Source: an uncultured Candidatus Peribacteria bacterium (GTDB lineage: Bacteria > Patescibacteriota > Gracilibacteria > BD1-5 > UBA6164). Taken from it: 64,000 bases of DNA. The stretch lies in NCBI GenBank assembly GCA_964415565.1, contig CAYQAV010000131.1, positions 291 through 64,290 on the forward strand, written 5' to 3'. The translations under genes and the position numbers were made by a program. Below, in pieces: positions 8,079 to 41,645 of this stretch; position 1 is the stretch's first letter; the number at the start of each line of letters is the position of its first letter. The notes beneath the pieces are model-generated. The model saw only the letters and a program-made list of their open reading frames with translations. It was not told the origin of the DNA and searched no databases.

Positions 8079-10700
8079 ATGTTTGATATGGGTATTAAAG
8101 TTATTAAAACAAGAGATTGAGATTTGTTACACTTCGATAGAAGTAGAATAGAGAGAGTTATAGAAAAAGCAGCCGAAAGTGTATGAGAAAAAAACCTAGA
8201 TTTTGTAGATTTTATAACTGATAATGTAATTCAAGCATTAGAGTTAAAATTAGAAAAATTTGATAAATCTCAGTTTATAACTGTTGAAATGATTCAAGAC
8301 CAAGTAGAAAGAGAATTAATGGAATCTTGATATTTTCAAGTAATGAAACATTTTATTATCTACAGAAGTAAAAGAGCCGAAGCAAGAGAAAAAGCAAAAG
8401 AAAAAGTAGAAAAAAAATTATCTGAAAATACATTTAAAATTATTAAAACTACTTGAAAAAAAGAAAGTTTTGATATGGATAAAATAGAAAAAACTTATAA
8501 AATCGTAAGTTATTGATTAGCTAGAAAATGTAGATTTGAAGAAATAAGTGATAGTTTTAGAAAATATATCGTTGAATGAATGAAAACAAACGATATAACT
8601 AAGATGCTTATTAAATCAGCTATAGATTTGATTTCTATTGAAAATACTTCTTGGCAATTTATTGCTTGAAGATTGGCTTTAATTGATTTGTATAAAGAAG
8701 CTTCAAACAATAGAAAAATGGATATCAAAAAAATATATGAAGCAAAACATTATGCTGAATTATTTGATGAATATGTAAAATTATGATTATATTCTAAAAA
8801 TTTCTATAATTATTATACAAAAGAAGATATTTTAGAAGCAGGTAAATACTTGAAAAAAGATTATGATTTTGAATACAATTATACAACTATTTTGATGTAT
8901 AAAAAAAGATATCTTTTAAATCCAAATAAGAAAATAAAAGAATTACCTCAAGAAATGTATATGAGTATTGCTCTATTTTTAGCTATGCCTGAACCAAAGG
9001 AAAATAGATTAAAAATTGCAAAAAAGATATATGATTATTGTGCTACTGGTAAAATTTCTCTACCAACTCCAACTCTATTAAATGCTAGAACAAATTTTCA
9101 TCAATTATCTAGTTGTTTTAAATTTAATGTTGAAGATGATTTAAGAGCAATTTATCATTCTATTGAAAATATGGCACAAGTTTCTAAATTTTGAGGATGA
9201 ATTTGAGTTTATCTTTGAAATATTAGAAGTAGAGGGGCAAATATTAGATGAGTAAAAGGTGCTGCAGGTTGAGTTAATCCTTGGATTAAAGTTATAAATG
9301 ATACTGCAGTTGCAGTAAATCAATTGTGAGCTAGAGCTTGAGCAATAAGTGTAACTTTAGATGTTTTTCATAGAGATATATATAGTTTTCTTGATATTCA
9401 AACTGAAACTTGAGATATAAGAAATAAAAGTTTTGATGTATTTCCAGCGGTTTCATTTCCAGATTTATTTATGGAAAGAGTAGCAAATGATGAAAATTGG
9501 ACACTTTTTGATCCAAAAGAAGTAACTGATTTTACAGGTAAAAAATTACAAGATCACTTTTGAGCTGAATTTGAAGTTTTTTATTCTGAGTGTGAAAAAA
9601 ATGAAAAATTAGAATTAAAAGAAGTTATTTCTGCAAGAGATTTGTTTAAAAAATTTTTAAAAGCAACTGTTGAAACTGGTATGCCTTATGCATTTTTTAG
9701 AGATACAGTAAATAAAGCAAATCCAAATAAACATGCTTGAAATATATATTCAACTCAACTTTGTGTTGAAATATGTCAAAATACAAGTCCTTCTAAATTT
9801 ATAGAAGAAACAATTGAAGATGGAAAAATAATTATAAAATACGAGCCAGGAGATAGCGTAGTTTGTAACCTAGCATCAATAAATGTTGCAAAAGTTAATA
9901 CTCCTGACGATATCAAAAAAGTACTTCCAGTTGCTATGAGATTACTTGATAATGTAATTGATTTAAATTTCTATCCTATAAAAGAAGCTGAAAAAACTGC
10001 AAAAAAATATAGATCTGTTTGACTTGGATTTTTATGACTTGCTGAATATTTAGCTGTAAATAAATTGGCATACGATAGTAAAGAAGCAAGAACAGTTGTT
10101 GATGAATTATTTGAAAAATATGCATATCAAACTCTTAAATCTTCAAATGAATTAGCAACAGAAAGAGGAACTTATGAAGTTTATAAATGAAGTGAATGGT
10201 CTAAATGAATATTATTTCAAAAAGATGCTAATTGGTTTAGAAATAATTCAAAAATGAGTGCTGACTGGTTAGAATTAATAGAAAATATTAAAAAAACTTG
10301 AGTAAGATTTGCTTATCACTTAGCTCCAGCACCAAATACTTCTACTGCTTTAGTAGTTGGTACAACAGCTTCAATTTTACCTATTTATAAAAAATATTTT
10401 GTTGAAACAAATGCAATTGCACCAAGTGTAAATGTGGCACCAAACTTAGATGAAGAAAATTTTTGGTATTACAAAGAATATGTAAATATGAATATGAATG
10501 ATGTAATTGATATGGTTTCAGTTATATATAAATGGATAGATCAATCAATCTCATTTGAATGGATGATAAACCCTGCAAATGTTTCTCCAAAAGAGCTTTA
10601 TGAATACTATTTTAAAGCACATAGAGAATGAATTAAAACAGTTTATTATGTTAGATCTATGAGTCTTGAAGTAAAAGAATGTGTAAGTTGTAGTTGATAA
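8079..10700 (+). CDS. nrdA: class I ribonucleotide reductase alpha subunit with N-terminal ATP-cone (873 aa)
   Basis: ATP-cone VIKTRDGDLLHFDRSRIERVI. LPTPTLLNARTNFHQLSSCF. KFGGGIGVYLGNIRSRGANIRG with TGA at 9192, 9198, 9204. STQLCVEI. C-terminal CVSCSG. ATG at 8088 is an alternative start. Confidence 0.9.
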
Positions 10701-31833: not shown

Positions 31834-33268
31834 ATTTTAACATCACTTTTGATAAAAATGTATTTATTTTTTCTTTATTTTCATCTAAATTGAAACAATT
31901 ATAATTTCTATAATGTTTTAAAATTAAATTTATTAAATTTCAATTTTTAGATATATCTAAATCATTTATAGGATTAATTAAAACAATATCATTTTTTGTA
32001 TCAATATTTAAATTTCATATACTTGTAGTATCAAAAGTATTATAAGTTGCAGTTCACCAAATACCATTTGGATATTTTAAATTTGGAATAGCAACTTCTA
32101 ATTTATTATCTGTTTTTGTATATATTTTTTCGTCTCACTGAGTGAAAAAATAAAATTCTTTTTCATTAGATCATATCCTTAATTTTATAGTATAATTTCA
32201 AGGATTTGAAAAATCTATTAAGTTTGTTAGTCAAATAGTATATGTACTTGTTCATATAAAATTTTTATACTCTTGAGTTGCTCAACTCATAAAAGTATAA
32301 GTAAATATATTGGTATTAAAATCTTTTTCATCACTTACTTCATCAATATTGAAGTCAGTATTTATATTAAGAGAAGTTATATTAGAATTTATATTATTAT
32401 TATAAAAACTTAAATAAATTTTATCAATATTATTTTCAGTTACTCATGAAAAAGTAAATATTTTATTTGGTACAATTACTGATTCACTACTAAATTTTAA
32501 TATTTCTCAATTTCAACTATTGGCTATATAAAGTGTTTTTCAAACACTATCATAATATAATCAAGTTGGTTCGTTTAATCCATCATTTTCATCTAAAAGT
32601 GTGTGAATAGTTGTTCATGAAAGGTATAAAATCCTATTATTTAAAGTATCACTTACATATAAAACATCTCAATCAGAAGCCATTCAAGTAGGAGAATTTA
32701 AATATATTCAAGTAGCACTTGTTCACTCACTAAATTTATCTCAAAAAACTCATCTTCAAATAACTGTATTTCATAAATTATCTGTAACCTTATGTTCTTT
32801 TTGATATGAAATATAAGTATTTCATTTATGACTAATACTTCAAGTTAGATAATTATTTGTAGTTATATCTTCTCAATTTTCAAAAAATGGAATAAAGTTT
32901 TTTATAAAAATATGTTTTGTTTTTGTATCTTCGCTACTTACATCATTACAATAATATCAATCTAAAATAGAAGATCCAATATATGTAAAACCTCATTTAT
33001 CAAATATATTTTGTCTTTTAAATATAACTCATGAACTTGTAAAATGTAAACTTCCTGAATTTTCTATACTTCAAAGCGTTTCATATATGTCAGATGCAAA
33101 ATCGTTTAAATCTGAAGCATTTGTCAGAGATTTTTGTTGCAAAAAAATATTTTGCATTCAACTTGATACAAAAACTCAAATAGAAACCATAAGAATCATA
33201 GAAATAGTTATTCAAACTATTAATTCTATCAGTGAAAAGGCTCTTTTTATTTTATTTTTAGAATCCAT
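31832..33268 (-). CDS. type IV pilin-like (prepilin N-terminal methylation motif) protein with NHL-repeat domain (478 aa)
   Basis: MDSKNKIKRA|FSLIELIVGITISMILMVSIGVFV (class III signal peptide). Later DVLYVSDTLNNRILY and GLNEPTGLYYDSVGKTLYIANSGNGEILKF (NHL-like repeats). The start overlaps the end of the holB-like gene by 22 nt. Confidence 0.7.
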
Positions 33269-33936
33269 TTATCAACTATATATTTAGCATTTAAATTATT
33301 TTGTTTTATAGAATTTATATCTTCATTTATTTCTTCTAAATAATTTATAAAAGTTAAATTATTTTTAGAATATATGATTAAATTTTCTAAGAAATCTATG
33401 TATTCTTGTTTTTCTAATTTACTTTTAAAAAAGTAAGCTATTAGTTCATTACTTTCTTCTTTTAAATAGCTTTTTATCAAACTTAAATAAAATGCATTTT
33501 CTTTTTTAATTTGTGAAATATTTAAGTCAATTATTTGAACTCTTGAAATAATTGTTTCTAAAATATTATTTTCTCCAGAATTTGTAGTAAAAATGATGTT
33601 TCAAACTCAAGGTTCTTCAAAAAATTTTAAAAGTGAATTGCTTGAAGTAGGGGTTAATCTAGAGATATTTTCTATAAAAAATATTTGAAATTTAAAAGGT
33701 GATTTTGAGTTAGAATATTCTACAAAGCTTTTTATTTCTTTAATTTTTATTTTTTCTCAGTCATCTTTTAATATATATAAATATACATTTGGAATCTCAA
33801 ATTCTTTAAGTAAGGAAATTGCAATATTTTCTACTTTCTCATTTAGTAAATCTAGGTTTTTTCCAATAAACAAAAAAGGAGACACTTCACCTCCTTTTTT
33901 TATTTTTTCACTTATTTTTGATACTATATTATCCAT
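33247..33936 (-). CDS. holB: DNA polymerase III delta-prime-like subunit (229 aa)
   Basis: PFLFIGKNLDLL..IKEIKSFVEYSNSKSPFKFQIFFIENISRLTPTSSNSLLKFFEEPGVGNIIFTT..ILETIISRVQ; clamp-loader box motifs without an intact Walker A. Confidence 0.65.
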
Positions 33937-34294
33937 TTTCAGCTGAATTAATTATGTCATTTATTAAAGAGTCTATATCATTTAATATTTCTTCTTCAGT
34001 TATGTTGTCTTTAGAAGCTTCTTCATTTGTTTCAACTATAGTTTCTATATTTTTTTCTACACTTGCATTTTGTCCACCAGAATTTGTTTCTATTTTAATT
34101 TCTGTTCACTTTTCATAAAAAGTGTATTTTCATTCTTCACTTATTTCTCCTGTTCAAGTTACAGTTCAAGAATCAGTATTATCAATACTTATAATAGCCC
34201 CAGAATCAGTTTTTGGAGTTGTATTATCGTCTTTAGAAAGAGTACAAGAACTAATAATTAGAGTAAAAAGAGTTATTATTATTAATTTTTTCAT
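33929..34294 (-). CDS. lipoprotein, hypothetical (121 aa)
   Basis: MKKLIIITLFTLIISSC lipobox. Acidic Thr/Glu-rich mature part. The stop overlaps the holB-like ATG (ATGGATAA). Confidence 0.6.
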
Positions 34295-34357
34295 AGATAA
34301 AGCATTAAAAATTACAATTGTTATTATTTTAATTCAAAAATAAAAAAAATCAACAAA

Positions 34358-34400
34358 AAACAATTTAATGCAAATTTAATGTGCCATGAGTATAATGATA
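34358..34400 (+). promoter_or_regulatory. promoter-like 43-nt element, copy 2 (tandem ATTTAATG repeats + TATAAT), upstream of comM
   Basis: aaacaATTTAATGcaaATTTAATGtgccatgagTATAATgata. The TATAAT lies 25 nt before the comM ATG. Confidence 0.6.
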
Positions 34401-34421
34401 TTTTATTATTAAATTTGAAAA

Positions 34422-35960
34422 ATGATAAGTAAAATAAACTCTATTGCTATAAACTGAATTGTTTCTGATTTGATAGAAGTTGAAGTTGATATAAATACAT
34501 GACTTCCTAGTTTTACGATAGTTTGATTGCCTGACCAATGAGTTCAAGAAAGTAAGGAAAGGATTAGATCAGCTTTAAAGTCTAGTAATTCAAAATTACC
34601 AACTTCTAGAATTACTATAAATCTAGCACCAGCAGATATAAAAAAATCATGACCTAATTTTGATCTAGCAATTGCAATTGGGATATTAAATCATGAATGA
34701 GTTATAAATGATGATTATTTAATAGATAGTATATTTGTCTGAGAATTGTCTCTTGATTGAAAACTTAGAAAGATTTCAGGAGTGCTACCAAGTACTATTT
34801 GAGCAAAGGAAAAATGATTTAAAAGAATATTTTTACCACTTGAAAACTCACTAGAAGCATCAATTATTCCTTGAATTGATATAGTTTGAATAAATAATTT
34901 AACTGATTTAATTGATATCTTAAATAAAGATAAACCGTTAGAATTAATTCCAAAACTGGATTTTAAAAATTTAAATAAAGATGATTTTATAGATTCTAAA
35001 TATGATTTAAAATATATTTTATGACAAAATCATGCAAAAAGAGCTCTTGAAATAGCTGCAAGTTGAGGACACAATATAATTATGAGCTGACCACCAGGTT
35101 CTGGAAAAACTATGCTTAGTAGAGCATTTTCAACAATACTTCCTGATTTAACAATTGATGAAGCAATAGAAGTTTCAAAAATTTATAGTATTTCAGGACT
35201 TTTAAATAGTGAAAATCCTATAATTACAAGAAGACCATTTAGAGTTATACATCATACTGCAAGTTCTGTGAGTATTATTTGATGATGAAGAAATGCAAAA
35301 CCAGGTGAGATTTCTCTAGCACATAAATGAGTTTTGTTTTTGGATGAAGTTTTGGAGTTTAATAAAAGTGTTTTGGAGGTTTTAAGACAACCAATCGAAG
35401 ATTGAGAAATCACAGTAAATAGGATAAATGCAAGTCTGACTTATCCAGCTAAATTTATATTAGTTTGAGCTATGAATCCTTGTCCTTGTGGTTTTTTATC
35501 TGATCCAGACAAAGATTGTATTTGTACTTTTAGGCAAATAGAAAATTATAAAAGCAAACTTTCATGACCACTTATAGACAGGATAGATATATTTATAGAA
35601 GTACCAAAAGTAAAAGTATGAGAATTTAAAGTTGATGAAAAATATGAAAATGCAGTTACTTCTAAAATCATAAAAGACAAGGTTGAAAAGTCTAGAATTA
35701 TCCAATTAGCTAGATTTAAAAATACAAAAATCACTTTTAATAGTGAGATGACAACAAAGGAAATAAACAAATATTGTCAGCTTGATAGTGAAAGTGAAAA
35801 TATCTTAAAACAAGCAATTGCAAGTTTAAATCTGTCAGCTAGAGCTTATTATAGGATACTCAAATTATCCAGGACTATAGCGGATTTAGAGTGAAGTGAT
35901 GATATAAAAAAAGAGCATATATTGGAAGCTCTTAGTTTTAGGAAGAGGGAGGAGAAATAA
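34422..35960 (+). CDS. comM: Mg-chelatase-like competence protein ComM/YifB (512 aa)
   Basis: [102 protein letters not shown]. Confidence 0.9.
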
Positions 35961-35967
35961 TATTTAA

Positions 35968-36022
35968 CTAGCATTTTCAAAAATTATTTTTATAATAAAA
36001 ACAAAAATTAAATATAATTATA
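35968..36022 (+). repeat. 55-bp direct repeat, left copy
   Basis: ctagcattttcaaaaattatttttataataaaaacaaaaattaaatataattata; 52/55 identical to 39566-39620. Contains a TATAAT. Confidence 0.85.
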
Positions 36023-36040
36023 GATTAATAAAAAAAATTT

Positions 36041-37510
36041 ATGAATAATCAAATATTATCAAAATATGATACAAAAATAACTCTAGATTTTTTATTAAAA
36101 GAAAAAGAGTCAGTTATTTTTGAAAGAAAATGAATTTTTAAACCAGATGGAGATATTTGATTTTCTCCTTCAAAAGTTGCTAGTGAGATTATTTGAATGT
36201 TAAATGCTGATGGTGGTATTTTGGTTTTATGAATTAATTCTGGAGAAATACAAGATTTAAAACTTTTATCAAACACAAAATTTAATGATTATTTACAAGT
36301 TGTTCATCAATTTATAACTCCACCTGCAATAGTTAAATTAGAGGAAATTTATATAGATTGAAAATGTATTTTAGTCTATCATATACCATCAGAAAAAGAA
36401 AGAATTTTTTGTAGAAAAGATAATGAGGAAGTTTGGTTCAGAAATTGAGATGAAACAATAAAATTAGATAGAGAAGCAGTAAAGGTACTAGAATATAATA
36501 AATCTATAAGAAAATTTGAAGAAGAAAAAAGAGATGACTTTGATAAAGAAGACCTGAGAGAAAGTGTTTTGGAATATTACAAAAAGAAAATAAATTTTAA
36601 CTGAAGTTATGATGATTTATTAGTATATAGAAATTTAGCAATAAAAAAAGATTGAAAGTATATTTATAATAATGCAGCAATCTTACTATTTGCTGAAAAT
36701 ACTGAAAAGTATATAAGTTCTTCTTCAGTAAGATATGTAAGATATTCTTGAATAAAATTAGAATCAGGAAGAAATTTTAATGTTATAAAAGATCAACCAT
36801 TTGAATGATGTATACCAAGACTTATAGAATTAGTAAAAAGATTTTTGAGTAGTGTTTTTAGAGATTATTATTATTTAGATTTAGAAACTTGAAAATTTAA
36901 TAAAATTCCTGAGTATCCTGAAGATGCTTGGCTGGAATGATTAGTAAATGCATTAACTCACAGGTCTTATAATATTCACTGAAATGTTATTTATATTAAA
37001 CATTATGATGATAGACTTGAAATTTCAAATTCTTGACCATTGCCAATGTGAGTAACTGTCAAAAATATAAGAGAAAGGAGATTTTCAAGAAATCCAAAGA
37101 TAGCAAAAGTTTTATATGAAATGTGATATGTAAGAGAATTAAATGAATGAGTAAAAAGAATCTATGAATCAATGGAAAAGTCTTTTTTATGTGAACCAGA
37201 ATATATTGATAAAGAAAATATTGTTACTCTTGTGTTAAAAAATAATGTATCAAAGGATGAAGACACTATTTCTGAAAAAACTATGAAAAGAATAGAAAAT
37301 ATATTTATTTCTTTGAATGATAGTGAAAAACAAATACTTAGTTATTTATTGATTAATAAAAAATCTACAGTTCTAGAATTGAAAGAGAATATTAATATTT
37401 CAATTCAAATGATTAGACAGTATATTAACAATTTTATAGAAATTGAAATAGTTTCTAGAGATAGTGAAAAAATTAGAGACAAAAATGCTATATATAAAAT
37501 TAAGAAATAG
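36041..37510 (+). CDS. AlbA_2/Schlafen-type putative DNA-binding ATPase-like protein with C-terminal wHTH (COG2865-like, 489 aa)
   Basis: ESVIFERKG..SEIIGMLNADGGILVLGI (AlbA_2), RFSRNPKIAKVLYEMGYVRELNEGVKRI (HATPase_c_4-like), C-terminal QILSYLLINKKSTVLELKENINISIQMIRQYINNFIE. Confidence 0.75.
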
Positions 37511-37528
37511 ATTAATCTAAATTAATTT

Positions 37529-37631
37529 AAAATAAGGAAAGTAAAATTAAATATAAATTTGTCTTTATTTTAAGCTATTTTATAAAAACAAGGAAAGTTT
37601 AATAAAAAATAAGGAAAGTAAAATTAATATT
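37529..37631 (+). promoter_or_regulatory. three direct repeats centred on AAGGAAAGT
   Basis: aaaatAAGGAAAGTaaaattaa (core 37534), aaaacAAGGAAAGTttaataa (core 37590), aaaatAAGGAAAGTaaaattaa (core 37611). The last two cores are 21 bp apart. The third copy ends 13 nt before the ATG at 37644. Confidence 0.5.
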
Positions 37632-37643
37632 AAAATCTATATT

Positions 37644-38363
37644 ATGCAAAACAAAGAAATCACATTTTCAGATGCAATAGAACAAGTTATGATAAATAAT
37701 TGATTTTATGCACCACTTTCTCTTATTTATAAAGAATTTTGAAAATATAGAGAAAAAACTTGATTAACTACAGATAATACAATTCAAGAAAGAGTTCAAA
37801 GAGATAAAAGATTTACTAAAATTGGTTATTGAGTTTATGCTTTAACTGAATTTTTAGATAAATTACCAAAAGAAAAGCCTATAAAAACAGAAAAAGATAA
37901 GATTGAAAGAATGCATTCAAGAATTCAATGAATGCTTATTGAAATTTGAAATATGAATTGATATGATACATATACTCCTGATAAAAATTGAATTTTTATA
38001 AACAAAGAAATTTGAAAACTAGCTACTCTTGATAAAATTCCACAATTCACATATGAAAAAATTATCAATGATTCTATAAGATTTGTTGATGTAATTTGGT
38101 TTAATGAAAGATGATTTCCTGCAAAATTGATAGAAGTTGAAAATTCTACAGATTTTAGAGCTTGATTTATAAAAATGAATGAAATTCAAGATTTTAGAAC
38201 TGATTTTTTATTTATTGCACCAGAAGAAAGAAAAAATAAATTTGATACTGAAAGACAAAAAATTGCATTTAAAAATATAAAAGATAGATGTATATTTCAA
38301 ACTTATGATTTTGTAGAAAATTGGTACAATAATCATATTGAATGAAAAAAGTTTAAAATATAA
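37644..38363 (+). CDS. HARE-HTH domain + PD-(D/E)XK-like nuclease candidate (239 aa); putative restriction endonuclease
   Basis: N-terminus ITFSDAIEQVMINNGFYAPLSLIYKEF..TIQERVQRDKRFTKIGYGVYAL (HARE-HTH pattern). C-terminus HSRIQGMLIEIGNMNGY..VDVIWFNERGFPAKLIEVENS (D...EVE core). Confidence 0.55.
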
Positions 38364-38441
38364 TTTTACTACTTATAATCTGTTGTAATTCATGAGTTTT
38401 CATGTAAAATAAGCCAATATTTAATATTGACTTATTTTTTT

Positions 38442-39512
38442 ATGAACTACCTTTGATCAAAAAAATCATTAATAGAATTTATAGAAAAATCTATAAATTC
38501 TATAGTTAGTGAAAAAAAATATACATTTTCTGATCTTTTTGCTTGAACTTGAATAGTTTGAAGATATTTTAAAGAGAAATGACATAGTGTAATCGCAAAT
38601 GATTTGCAATATTATAGCTTTGTATTAAATAAAAACTATATCTGAAATCATACTGATTTATATTTTTCTTGATTAAGAGAAAAAATCCCAGAATTATTTG
38701 TTTGAGATGTAAATAATTATAAAGAAATAGTTTGTAATTATCTAAATTGATTGAAATGAAAAAAATGATTTATATATAAAAACTATTCTGTTTGATGAAC
38801 AAAATGAGAAGAATACGAAAGAATGTATTTCTCAGATGAAAATGCAATGAAATGTGATGCAATAAGAAGTAAGATTGAAAAATGGAAAGATAAAGAACTT
38901 ATAACTGAAAACGAATATTATTTTTTATTAACAAGTTTATTAGAAAATATAGATAAGGTTGCAAATACTGCTTCTGTTTACTGAGCTTTTTTGAAAAAAT
39001 TAAAAAAATCAGCAGAAAAAGTTATGTTTTTAAAACCAGCAGATTTTTTCTTAAATGATCACGAACATACAGTTTATAATTCAGATGTAAATGAATTAAT
39101 TAAAAATACTTCTCACGAAGTTGTATATTTGGATCCACCATATAATGAAAGACAATATAGTGCAAATTATCATGTACTTGAAACAATAGCAAAATATGAT
39201 AAACCAAAACTAAAATGAAAAACTTGAATGAGAGATTATAGTAAACAAAAATCACTTTATTGTAAAAAAACAGAAGTTAAGAATTCATTTAGAGAATTAA
39301 TCCAAAATATAGATGCAAAATATGTATTTTTGAGCTATAATTGTGAATGATTAATGAATATAGATGAAATAAAAGAAATAATGTCTTCAAGATGAGAATA
39401 TTGAGTTTTTACTAAAGAATATAAAAGATTTAAAGCAGATAAAACAGAAAATAGAAATCATAAAAAAGTATGAGTAACTGAATATTTACATTATGTTAAA
39501 ATAATGAATTAA
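38442..39512 (+). CDS. D12-class N6-adenine DNA methyltransferase (356 aa)
   Basis: MNYLGSKKSLIEFI, motif I DLFAGTGIVG, motif IV VYLDPPYN. Target sequence cannot be inferred. Confidence 0.85.
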
Positions 39513-39515
39513 ATA

Positions 39516-39560
39516 AAAAACAATCATTTTGTCGGAGCTGACAAAATGGTTGTTTTTTAT
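39516..39560 (+). terminator. intrinsic terminator after the methylase gene
   Basis: Stem aaaaacaatcattttgtc/gacaaaatggttgttttt, loop ggagct, T-run. Confidence 0.7.
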
Positions 39561-39565
39561 TTTTT

Positions 39566-39620
39566 CTAGCATTTTCAAAAAATATTTTTATAATAAAAAC
39601 CAAAATTAAATTTAATTATA
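39566..39620 (+). repeat. 55-bp direct repeat, right copy
   Basis: ctagcattttcaaaaaatatttttataataaaaaccaaaattaaatttaattata; it ends 4 nt before the ATG at 39625. Confidence 0.85.
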
Positions 39621-39624
39621 AAAG

Positions 39625-40650
39625 ATGAAAATAAGTATTTTTGCTTCGATTTGAGCACAAAACCTTTGAGATGAACTGATATTAAAAAACGAAATAAAAC
39701 TTTTAAAGAAAGAGTATTGAGAAGATACTAAATTTAGAGTTTTTACTTACGATAAAAAAAATCCATTTTTTATTGACGAAAATGTAGTTTATAGTGAATA
39801 TTTTCCAATTTTAATAAGAGAATGAAAAAAAATATTTAAAAATTTAATCAATTTTTTTATATTTATTTTTAGTGTTATTTGAAGTGATTTAATAGTTATA
39901 GGTTGAGGTTGAATCATATATGACAATGAAGTACAATCTACAAAAAATCCTCTAGATTCTTGGATTTTTAGAGTAAGAGTTTTTAGATTTTTTAGAAAGA
40001 AATTCAGATTTTTTAGAGTTTGAATAAATATTAAAAATGAACTTAGTTTAAAAAAAGTTAAAAAAATATTTAAAAAAGCTTATAAAATAGAAGTAAGAGA
40101 TAATTATAGTTTTGAATTATTGAAATCTTTGTGAATAGAATCAAGTATAGAAAAAGACCCAGTTTTCTATGATGCTTGAGAATTAGTAATTGATAAATCT
40201 ATAATTTGAACTATTTCATCATATCATTTTGATAAAACTTTATTTAAAGATTTTGACTTAGTTTGAAAAAAAATTGGTTTGGCAATAAGAGCTTGATATT
40301 TTTTTGAACAATCAAACATATCTTCAAGGATGGAAGAGTGAAGAGTTAGAGAAATAATAAATTATTTAGTTTCAGAGTGAGCAAGTGTTGTTTTATTACC
40401 TCATAGTTTTCACGAAACTGATGAATTGGCAAATGATTTCTTGTTTATGAGTAATTTTATTTGAGAAGAGTGAGTTAGTATAAAAGAAAATATGACAGAA
40501 GTTTATGAAACTTATACAAAAAAAGAAATTGATATCTGCATTGCTATGAGATTACACTCTATAATTCTTAGTCATGTTTATAAGATTCCTTTTATTTGAG
40601 TTAGTTATTCTACAAAAACAGATGAAGTTTTAAATGAATTAAAAAAATAA
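39625..40650 (+). CDS. polysaccharide pyruvyl transferase family protein (341 aa)
   Basis: MKISIFASIGAQNLGDELIL..LIVIGGGGIIYD..VVLLPHSF..CIAMRLHSIILS. Confidence 0.7.
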
Positions 40651-40651
40651 T

Positions 40652-40933
40652 ATGAAACAAGAAATCTTGAATTATCTTCTAACTATTCCTAAGTGAAAAG
40701 TTACAACATATAAAAATATTGCTAATATATTTGGTGTTCATCCTAGAACTGTTTCTCAAACTATGAGATATAATAAAAATCCAGAAATTTTTCCTTGTTA
40801 TAAAGTTATAGCATCAACTTGAAAAATAAGTTGATACAATACTTCAAGATGAGTAGAAGAAAAAATAGAAAAATTAAAAAATGATGGTATTGAAGTTATA
40901 AATTGAGTTGTTGATAAAAAATTTATTATATAA
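40652..40933 (+). CDS. MGMT-family DNA-binding domain protein (93 aa, C-terminal domain only)
   Basis: IPKGKVTTYKNIANIFGVHPRTVSQTMRYNKNPEIFPCYKVI. The canonical PCHRV is PCYKV here (Cys retained). Confidence 0.7.
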
Positions 40934-40969
40934 AAAAAACTCTGATTTTTAAAAATCAGAGTTTTTTTT
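40932..40969. terminator. bidirectional terminator
   Basis: aactctgattttt/aaaaatcagagtt with A-run and T-run flanks. The ung stop lies at its edge. Confidence 0.7.
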
Positions 40970-41645
40970 ATATCTTCCAATCTATTTCTTTTTCTCATCT
41001 TTCAAGTAATATTTCGTTTACTTTTTTAAAATGATTATTTCATAAAAATCATCTGTGTGCTGAAAATGGGGAAGGATGTGGACTCTCTAAAACTATGTGT
41101 TTTTTTGTATCAATTAGTGATTTTTTACCTTGTGCAAATGCTCACCAAAGTAAAAAAATAACATTTTCTTTCTCAATACTTATAGTTTTTATTATCTCGT
41201 TTGTAAATTTTTCCCAACCAATTTTAGAATGACTTGCTGGATTTCAAGCTTGTACAGTTAGAATTGCATTTAGTAAGAAAACTCATTGTTTTGTCCAAGG
41301 AGTTAAATCTCAAGAAGTAGAGTTTTTTATTCACAAACTAAATTCAATCTCCTTGTAAATATTTTTTAAACTTGGAGGAAGTTTTGTTCATTCTGGAACT
41401 GAAAAACAAAAACCTTGTGCTTGTCATGCTCAATGATATGGATCTTGTCACAAGATAACAACTTTTAAATCTTTGAAATTTGTTTTCTCAAATGCATTAA
41501 AAACCATATTTAAAGGAGGATATATAGTTATAGAAGAGTCTATATCTTTTTGTATTTCAGTTCTTATTCATGAAAAATAATCTTTTCTAAACTCTTTTTC
41601 AATAATATCTTTCCAATCATTTTTTATATAGTTTTCTAGTTTCAT
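40968..41645 (-). CDS. ung: uracil-DNA glycosylase (225 aa)
   Basis: [48 protein letters not shown]. Confidence 0.9.

Follow-up and report, generated by a model that had tools for sequence, protein, structure and literature searches.

Genes and signals between comM and the pyruvyl transferase gene

We analyzed a 64,000-nucleotide stretch of DNA (the window, which here means the whole stretch) from an uncultured bacterium of the Gracilibacteria lineage, in which a cassette of three genes lies between comM and a gene for a polysaccharide pyruvyl transferase (PT) and is bracketed by a direct repeat. We consider it likely that this cassette is a recombinase-less defence islet of ~3.5 kb, which was inserted into the 67-nt spacer between comM and PT with a target duplication of 55–63 nt. 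The GC content of the window is 23.3%, and long open reading frames (ORFs) emerge only if TGA counts as a sense codon. Since ComM homologues at 73–93% identity all belonged to Candidatus Gracilibacteria, genetic code 25 (TGA = Gly) was used for every translation. The window proteins were searched with Pfam and PADLOC profiles, and NmeDI_C (PF27126) was taken from precomputed Pfam annotations of homologues. For the occupied strain itself, repeats, tRNA genes and motifs were counted over the 64-kb window. Related contigs are referred to by locus numbers (L001 and so on); L009–L016 are contigs of at least eight independent assemblies (ENA, JGI) that are 99.9–100% identical to the window. The features of the locus are as follows.

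34422–35960, + strand: gene of the comM/YifB family for a Mg-chelatase-like AAA+ ATPase of 512 aa (24 codons TGA = Gly); conserved left flank, intact
35961–36022 (core 35968–36022), + strand: left spacer copy, 62 nt, head TATTTAA; upstream of the first cargo gene
36041–37510, + strand: cargo gene 1, 489 aa; Schlafen/AlbA_2, HATPase_c_4 and C-terminal winged helix
37511–37643, + strand: gap between cargo genes 1 and 2, with three copies of AAGGAAAGTWWAAT
37644–38363, + strand: cargo gene 2, 239 aa; type II restriction endonuclease homologue, NmeDI_C family
38442–39512, + strand: cargo gene 3, 356 aa; D12-class N6-adenine DNA methyltransferase, DPPY motif
39514–39559, + strand: cargo intrinsic terminator, 20-bp stem and T-tract; adjoins the right spacer copy
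39558–39620 (core 39566–39620), + strand: right spacer copy, 63 nt, head TATTTTTT; native position 4 nt upstream of PT
39625–40650, + strand: PT gene, Pfam PS_pyruv_trans (4.9e-30); conserved right flank

The ComM product matched Mg_chelatase of Pfam at 5.9e-91, together with ChlI and Mg_chelatase_C. The three cargo ORFs are intact only under code 25, with 17, 12 and 21 in-frame TGA codons, and their GC content (20–23%) equals that of the host. The first cargo protein matched HATPase_c_4 (5.4e-20), SLFN_AlbA_2 (3.6e-12) and a TrmB-like HTH domain in Pfam, as well as a pAgo-associated model of PADLOC (1.1e-44). The second is, by homology, a putative type II restriction endonuclease; it matched REase_II of PADLOC (2.9e-10), and PF27126 (NmeDI_C) was annotated on every database homologue. 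The third matched MethyltransfD12 of Pfam (1.8e-47) and MTase_II of PADLOC (2.4e-116), carries the methylase motif (D/N)PP(Y/F) as DPPY and is strongly assigned to the D12 family. Cargo genes 2 and 3 form a predicted type II restriction-modification (R-M) pair. The terminator behind them received four overlapping terminator-scan calls, compared with 0.2 expected, and was also detected as an inverted repeat.

The preliminary description of this DNA had seen no integrase or transposase inside the cassette, and this was borne out by the Pfam and PADLOC searches, which found no such domains in the three cargo proteins. The neighbours of the cassette are housekeeping genes, with no integrase among them; there are no tRNA or tmRNA genes in the 64-kb window, and no terminal inverted repeats at the ends of the cargo. 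PDB sequence searches with the restriction endonuclease and the methylase gave no match, NCBIfam gave nothing useful on the cargo and Rfam gave no match on the window. No relatives of the methylase were found in the viral contigs searched, and there is therefore no sign of phage carriage.

The direct repeat and its extent

A 55-bp direct repeat had been noted earlier as starting 8 nt from the comM stop and ending 4 nt before the PT initiation codon, and both the repeat and its spacing were reproduced here. The two copies (35968–36022 and 39566–39620) are identical at 52 of 55 positions and lie 3598 nt apart; the comM stop is TAA at 35958–35960, with the left core beginning at the 8th nt beyond it, and the right core stops 4 nt (AAAG) before the PT ATG at 39625. 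With up to three mismatches allowed, a 35-nt core was found at two sites only in the 64 kb, and 100 dinucleotide shuffles yielded no match at all; the repeat is non-random. The left copy, the right copy or both were found in each of the L009–L016 contigs that cover them. Because the same arrangement recurs in at least eight independent assemblies, an assembly artefact is excluded.

When the window was compared by BLAST with empty loci of relatives (see below), two high-scoring segment pairs were obtained that overlapped by 60–63 nt on the subject (L002, L003 and L006). This overlap indicates that the duplicated segment is the whole stretch from the comM stop, so that it probably starts directly after the stop codon and ends 4 nt before the PT ATG. 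The first 7–8 nt of the duplication are less certain, as they are T-rich and merge with the T-tract of the cargo terminator, and we therefore give the length of the duplication as 55–63 nt. The insert between the copies spans 36023–39557 (3,535 bp).

In its core, the right copy agrees at every position with the single copy of L001, and its head TATTTTTT is identical to the spacer head of L019; the left-copy head TATTTAA is the same as the spacer head of L001 and L007. A promoter-like motif, the conserved CTAGCATTTT...TATAAT, lies in the left copy, in which three substitutions are private or shared differently. At 36013–36018, a left-copy-specific T>A (36014) turns AAATTTAAT into AAATATAAT, giving a second perfect TATAAT located 22 nt upstream of the cargo ATG, and this substitution may represent an adaptive retuning of the duplicated promoter.

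Empty sites in related lineages

The preliminary description had proposed that relatives be compared for an empty site, with comM, one repeat and PT. Such a site was found in four lineages, namely L002 (GCA_028689115.1), L003/L004/L005, L006 and L019, in which comM is directly followed by PT. The spacer from the comM stop to the PT ATG is exactly 67 nt in all four and holds one repeat copy, and a deletion between the two repeats of the window would leave a spacer of 66–67 nt, which matches these empty sites.

A degenerate 29-nt spacer motif was found once each in four Gracilibacteria assemblies of GTDB and once each in two JGI contigs. With a looser regular expression, applied to 427 kb of Gracilibacteria DNA, the motif was located upstream of PT only, the sole exception being the copy upstream of the Schlafen-like gene in the strain of the window. 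The repeat copy number is accordingly two in the 64-kb window and one per assembly in four related metagenome-assembled genomes. Within the window and these relatives, the 55-mer is thus not a common dispersed intergenic repeat, which the preliminary description had named as a finding that would refute its reading. The motif CTAGC(A/T)TTTT...TATAAT is kept even in L030, the ComM of which is only 73% identical, and this conservation supports the idea that the spacer is the promoter region of PT.

Other cargo at the same position

In further relatives, the position between comM and the spacer is occupied by different DNA:

L001 (the closest NCBI relative): 765 bp with a 148-aa membrane ORF
L007: 7.9-kb type IIG R-M islet, with an N6_Mtase/Eco57I protein (type IIG-like), a Methylase_S subunit, an HTH_3/Peptidase_M78 protein and a HARE-HTH protein
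L023/L024: non-coding RNA-like element of ~210 nt, GC-richer
L030 (CP042461.1, complete genome of Candidatus Gracilibacteria bacterium 28_42_T64), 9554–10235: Gp49/HTH_3 (HigBA-like) pair

No sequence homology was found among the different cargos of the site, and no long flanking repeats were found around those of L001, L007, L023/L024 and L030. All of these other cargos adjoin the spacer at its first base, and the right boundary of the window cargo (39557/39558) is the same junction. With four empty lineages and five different cargos, the window included, the position downstream of comM is a local hotspot for defence and addiction modules in this clade. The comparison with comM as a landing site for genomic islands, drawn in the preliminary description, is superficial as regards AbaR/Tn7-like insertions, which lie inside the gene and bring transposition genes; the position directly downstream of comM is nevertheless a genuine hotspot.

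In L030, Gp49 is HigB-like and HTH_3 is HigA-like, which together make a toxin-antitoxin pair. The presence of this pair at the site in a genome whose ComM is only 73% identical indicates that the hotspot reaches well beyond close relatives. The insert of L023:6492–6712 (L024:3135–3355) has a TTGACA-N17-TATAGAAT promoter-like signal, a strong terminator and a core far GC-richer than the 23% genome; no convincing ORF and no Rfam match were found in it, and no copy of it in the window. It is a candidate small RNA gene.

The comM stop codon is TAG in three occupied sites that lack repeats (L001:11537–11539, L007:11537–11539 and L030:9534–9536) and TAA in all four empty sites, in L023 and in the window (35958–35960). 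This hints that the left junction of the insertions in L001, L007 and L030 lies inside the comM stop codon, although the pattern could be due to chance, as code 25 has two usable stops (roughly p ~ 0.06 for L001 and L007). Given that five unrelated cargos adjoin the spacer at one nucleotide and that three repeat-less occupied sites show TAA->TAG, the bond right after the comM stop could be more than a permissive gap, namely the true target of a trans-acting or host-encoded insertion process in Gracilibacteria; we regard this as rather unlikely. If it were true, the window would be a variant outcome in which the 63-nt spacer was copied, and the site would offer a handle on how recombinase-less defence islets enter genomes of the candidate phyla radiation (CPR).

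The R-M pair and the Schlafen-like gene in other contexts

The R and M genes occur again at 90% nucleotide identity in L017/L018, beside UvrD-like and DpnI_C genes, where the homology with the window is limited to 37650–39512, i.e. the two R-M ORFs. A third occurrence of the pair (80% protein identity) is flanked by a Mur ligase gene and dnaX (L027–L029). In these three different contexts the restriction gene always adjoins the D12 methylase gene, and all of the loci are low-GC and TGA-recoded, in agreement with the earlier proposal that the cargo moves within the recoded lineage. No flanking direct repeats were found around the pair in L017 and L027. Together with the lack of repeats around the other cargos of the comM site (L001, L007 and L030), this indicates that the long duplication is specific to the insertion in the window.

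The Schlafen-like gene is absent from the other units with the R-M pair, and its closest non-self homologues (69–74%) are located beside other R-M or defence genes. The cargo is hence composite, a defence islet whose R-M core circulates within recoded lineages. In L017, a 173-aa gene with a DpnI_C domain (methyl-DNA-binding winged helix; L017:4088–4609) shares 16 nt with the start of the restriction gene and occupies the position that the Schlafen-like gene holds in the window, which suggests that the accessory genes upstream of the R-M core are swapped modularly.

The gap upstream of the restriction gene contains AAGGAAAGTWWAAT at 37534–37547, 37590–37603 and 37611–37624 (three copies, compared with 0.08 expected), and this sequence was found nowhere else in the 64 kb. 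The 133-nt region is not common to the L017 copy of the R-M pair. The boxes may be operators that control restriction-gene expression. Same-strain contigs of four independent assemblies (L011, L012, L013 and L015) all end within ~60 nt of each other near the methylase start (window 38585–38647); these contig breaks may arise from k-mer-sharing paralogous R-M genes in co-occurring Gracilibacteria or from strain-level structural variation within the cassette.

A second presence/absence polymorphism was observed directly after PT, where a 93-aa gene with the DNA-binding domain of 6-O-methylguanine-DNA methyltransferase (Atl-like; 40652–40933 in the window) is present in the window, L007 and L002 (in the last with three extra genes) and missing from L001, L003 and L006. 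Behind it lies a perfect 23+23-nt palindrome (40928–40973) that resembles a bidirectional terminator.

Ancestry of the flanking DNA

We compared the flanks with the close L001/L006 clade (native) and with the distant L019/L003/L023 clade (foreign). Upstream of comM, positions 33061–34451 are 93–100% identical to L001/L006 and 58–89% identical to the L019/L003/L023 clade. From ~34480, the identity to L001/L006 drops to 83–87% and that to L019 climbs to 89–96%; L001 and L006 remain 97–100% identical to each other where the window diverges in comM. PT (95–97% nucleotide identity to L001/L006) and the DNA downstream are native again, at 95–98% identity to L001. The same picture was obtained from 293 informative sites, at which 33094–34451 was about 97% native, 34481–35411 mostly foreign and 39676 onward mostly native. 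The resulting tract is:

34481–35411, no strand assigned: foreign-ancestry tract within comM, the sites of which mostly match the distant L019/L003/L023 clade (sliding-window identities, informative sites)

L001, which is occupied, and L006, which is empty, diverge sharply over the last 500 nt of comM. These observations suggest that the site may be turned over by homologous recombination through its flanks, and patchy donor segments are a known result of natural transformation (PMC13344027).

Origin of the insertion and of the duplicated spacer

Taken together, the occupied site, the empty sites and the duplicated spacer are best explained by the insertion of the islet between comM and PT with duplication of the spacer. 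The left spacer copy would now serve as a promoter for the cargo, whereas the right copy would keep PT expressed, with the cargo terminator insulating PT. Only the few bases after the comM stop spare both comM and the link between PT and its promoter, so that insertions would plausibly be found either there or with a duplicated promoter; selection would tolerate only insertions upstream of the promoter (L001, L007, L023 and L030) or insertions that duplicate it, as in the window. Between lineages, the islet may have spread by DNA uptake followed by homologous recombination through comM and PT, without machinery of its own. The duplication itself may stem from one-sided homology-anchored illegitimate joining or from the repair of a staggered break, and recombination between the repeats could delete the islet precisely or amplify it.

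Several observations weigh against parts of this interpretation. Three of the 55 core positions and the heads differ between the two copies, whereas a recent in situ duplication would have left the copies near-identical; these differences imply that the event is old or that the copies are of different origin, the left copy having either arrived with donor DNA or diverged in place. A sigma-70 promoter scan performed no better than in shuffled sequences (32 found compared with 36.7 expected) in this 23% GC DNA, and what points to promoter activity of the spacer is its conservation and the TATAAT. The restriction and methylation activities of the cargo are likewise predictions. The last ~170 nt of comM look native at the few informative sites there and the mosaic is patchy; the data are consistent with, and suggest without proving, a joint transfer of the comM tract and the cargo, and because of this patchiness near the 3΄ end of comM we do not claim that the two were imported together. 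Finally, neither an excision product nor a circle nor a same-strain empty site was seen; the only direct search, a gapped DNA pattern run on metagenome contigs, came back empty, and as this pattern also missed the JGI contig L004, a known empty site, it is uninformative about the presence or absence of the islet within the strain.

One alternative is an origin in two steps, in which the cargo was first inserted without duplication at the junction of the comM stop and the spacer, as in L001 and L007, and a copy of the PT promoter was captured later through local duplication or gene conversion, selected for cargo expression. The right boundary of the cargo, located at the same junction as that of the other cargos, the substitutions proper to the left copy, including the one that creates the perfect TATAAT upstream of the cargo ATG, and the head TATTTAA shared with L001 and L007 would all fit this order of events. 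However, two events would be required although a single one is enough, no intermediate with the cargo but without the left copy was found among the relatives or the eight same-strain assemblies, and the end structure would be indistinguishable from that of a one-step long target duplication. We consider this origin distinctly unlikely.

Site-specific integration, with the repeats as attL and attR, an integrase acting in trans and the comM-proximal spacer as attB, would account for the way in which at least four different cargos adjoin the spacer at one nucleotide after the comM stop, and the length of the repeat lies within the range of tRNA-type att sites (PMC2853133). It is nevertheless very improbable, because neither the cargo nor its neighbours include an integrase, the window has no tRNA gene, no repeats at all flank the other cargos at the site, the repeat is the entire host promoter spacer and not a core common to element and target, and the motif occurs nowhere else in the genomes of the relatives. 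The preliminary description had proposed that a native promoter region was duplicated on insertion, like an att site or a target duplication; the target duplication stands, the spacer being that of the empty sites, and the att-site event does not. The chance that the repeat is a coincidence, i.e. a dispersed intergenic repeat, a chance AT-rich similarity or an assembly artefact, is negligible: many weak repeats do occur in the AT-rich intergenic DNA of this 23% GC genome (dozens at 70–80% identity in the window), but all three possibilities were ruled out by the copy numbers (two in the 64 kb and one per relative genome, always upstream of PT), the 52/55 identity with no match in the 100 shuffles, the alignment of both copies to the orthologous empty site and the independent assemblies.

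The insertion with target duplication that we favour is a well-resolved natural case of an R-M unit entering a genome without a recombinase, as occupied, empty and differently occupied sites are all available. It comes from a lineage in which an altered code constrains gene flow and in which mobile DNA is barely known, and it indicates that recoded R-M modules circulate among recoded genomes and that the hotspot spans lineages with ComM only ~73% identical. It further indicates that, where the duplicated target bears a promoter, an insertion can be neutral for transcription of the gene downstream and the cargo can still be expressed. With existing metagenomic reads, the locus also lends itself to testing for excision, amplification and homology-anchored illegitimate recombination.

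Comparison with known systems

In Acinetobacter, Tn7-like transposons of the AbaR/Tn6022 type insert inside comM, carry tns genes and have terminal inverted repeats and a 5-bp target duplication. The window shares with them comM as a landmark beside acquired DNA. In contrast, its comM is intact (512 aa), the insertion follows the stop codon, no tns-like domains were found and the duplication is 55–63 nt. A comM-targeting transposon of the Tn7-like/AbaR type was accordingly rejected, as comM is intact and neither tns-like domains nor terminal inverted repeats were found. An integrase-type island or prophage was also rejected, given that there is no tyrosine or serine recombinase, no tRNA or tmRNA gene in the window and no repeat around the other cargos.

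With the NmeDI family (PF27126), the restriction enzyme of the window shares a homologous C-terminal catalytic region and a gene tightly linked to a methyltransferase gene. It differs in being paired with a D12 N6-adenine methylase, whereas the partner of NmeDI itself is a C5-cytosine methylase.

The hsd "immigration control region" is a defence hotspot flanked by core genes. Defence hotspots between conserved core genes have been described across the E. coli pan-genome (PMC10121019), and the comM–PT site resembles them in being one position between conserved genes that is either empty or filled with differing defence or addiction modules, and in the mosaicism of its flanks. Unlike them, the comM–PT islets are tiny (0.2–8 kb) and have no mobile-element backbone, whereas most E. 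coli cargo rides on prophages, integrative elements or satellites (PMC10121019).

The closest likeness is to the R-M "insertion with long target duplication" of Furuta, Abe & Kobayashi 2010 (NAR 38:2428, PMC2853133), a mode for which that paper cites Nobusato et al. 2000 (its ref. 37). Five features define it: R and M genes in the insert, an insert of <20 kb, a target duplication of >30 bp, no other mobile element and an empty site in a related genome (PMC2853133). R-M units inserted in this way are on record from Helicobacter, Haemophilus, Neisseria and others. In H. influenzae, the repeats are 46 bp long, begin at the 3΄ end of the upstream gene and are identical at 44 of 46 positions between copies, and the R-M genes of one such case are accompanied by genes for an ATP-binding protein and a regulator (PMC2853133). 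The authors proposed that R-M double-strand breakage and amplification through the repeats may take part, the mechanism being undemonstrated (PMC2853133).

In the window, homologues of an R gene (37644–38363) and an M gene (38442–39512) lie in an insert of 3,535 bp, well within the 20-kb limit; the direct duplication of 55–63 nt exceeds 30 bp, and both copies align to a single empty-site sequence; and there are no mobility genes in or beside the unit. The locus is an R-M insertion with long target duplication that agrees with each published criterion except the uniqueness of the repeat (Furuta 2010), for which the coverage is that of the 64-kb window and the genomes of the relatives. Like the published cases, the locus combines R and M genes with accessory genes over <20 kb, has no mobility genes and is framed by direct repeats of >30 bp, of which a relative has a single copy at the empty site; as in H. 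influenzae, its repeat begins at the 3΄ end of the gene upstream. It differs from them in that the host belongs to the CPR (Candidatus Gracilibacteria) and reads TGA as Gly, with the cargo fully recoded; in that its copies have diverged a little further (52/55 plus the head); in that the comM–PT site also holds unrelated cargos without duplication; and in that the duplicated target is a complete promoter spacer, with an obvious consequence for expression. The window locus is not a new kind of system; it adds a case to an already known mode of R-M insertion.

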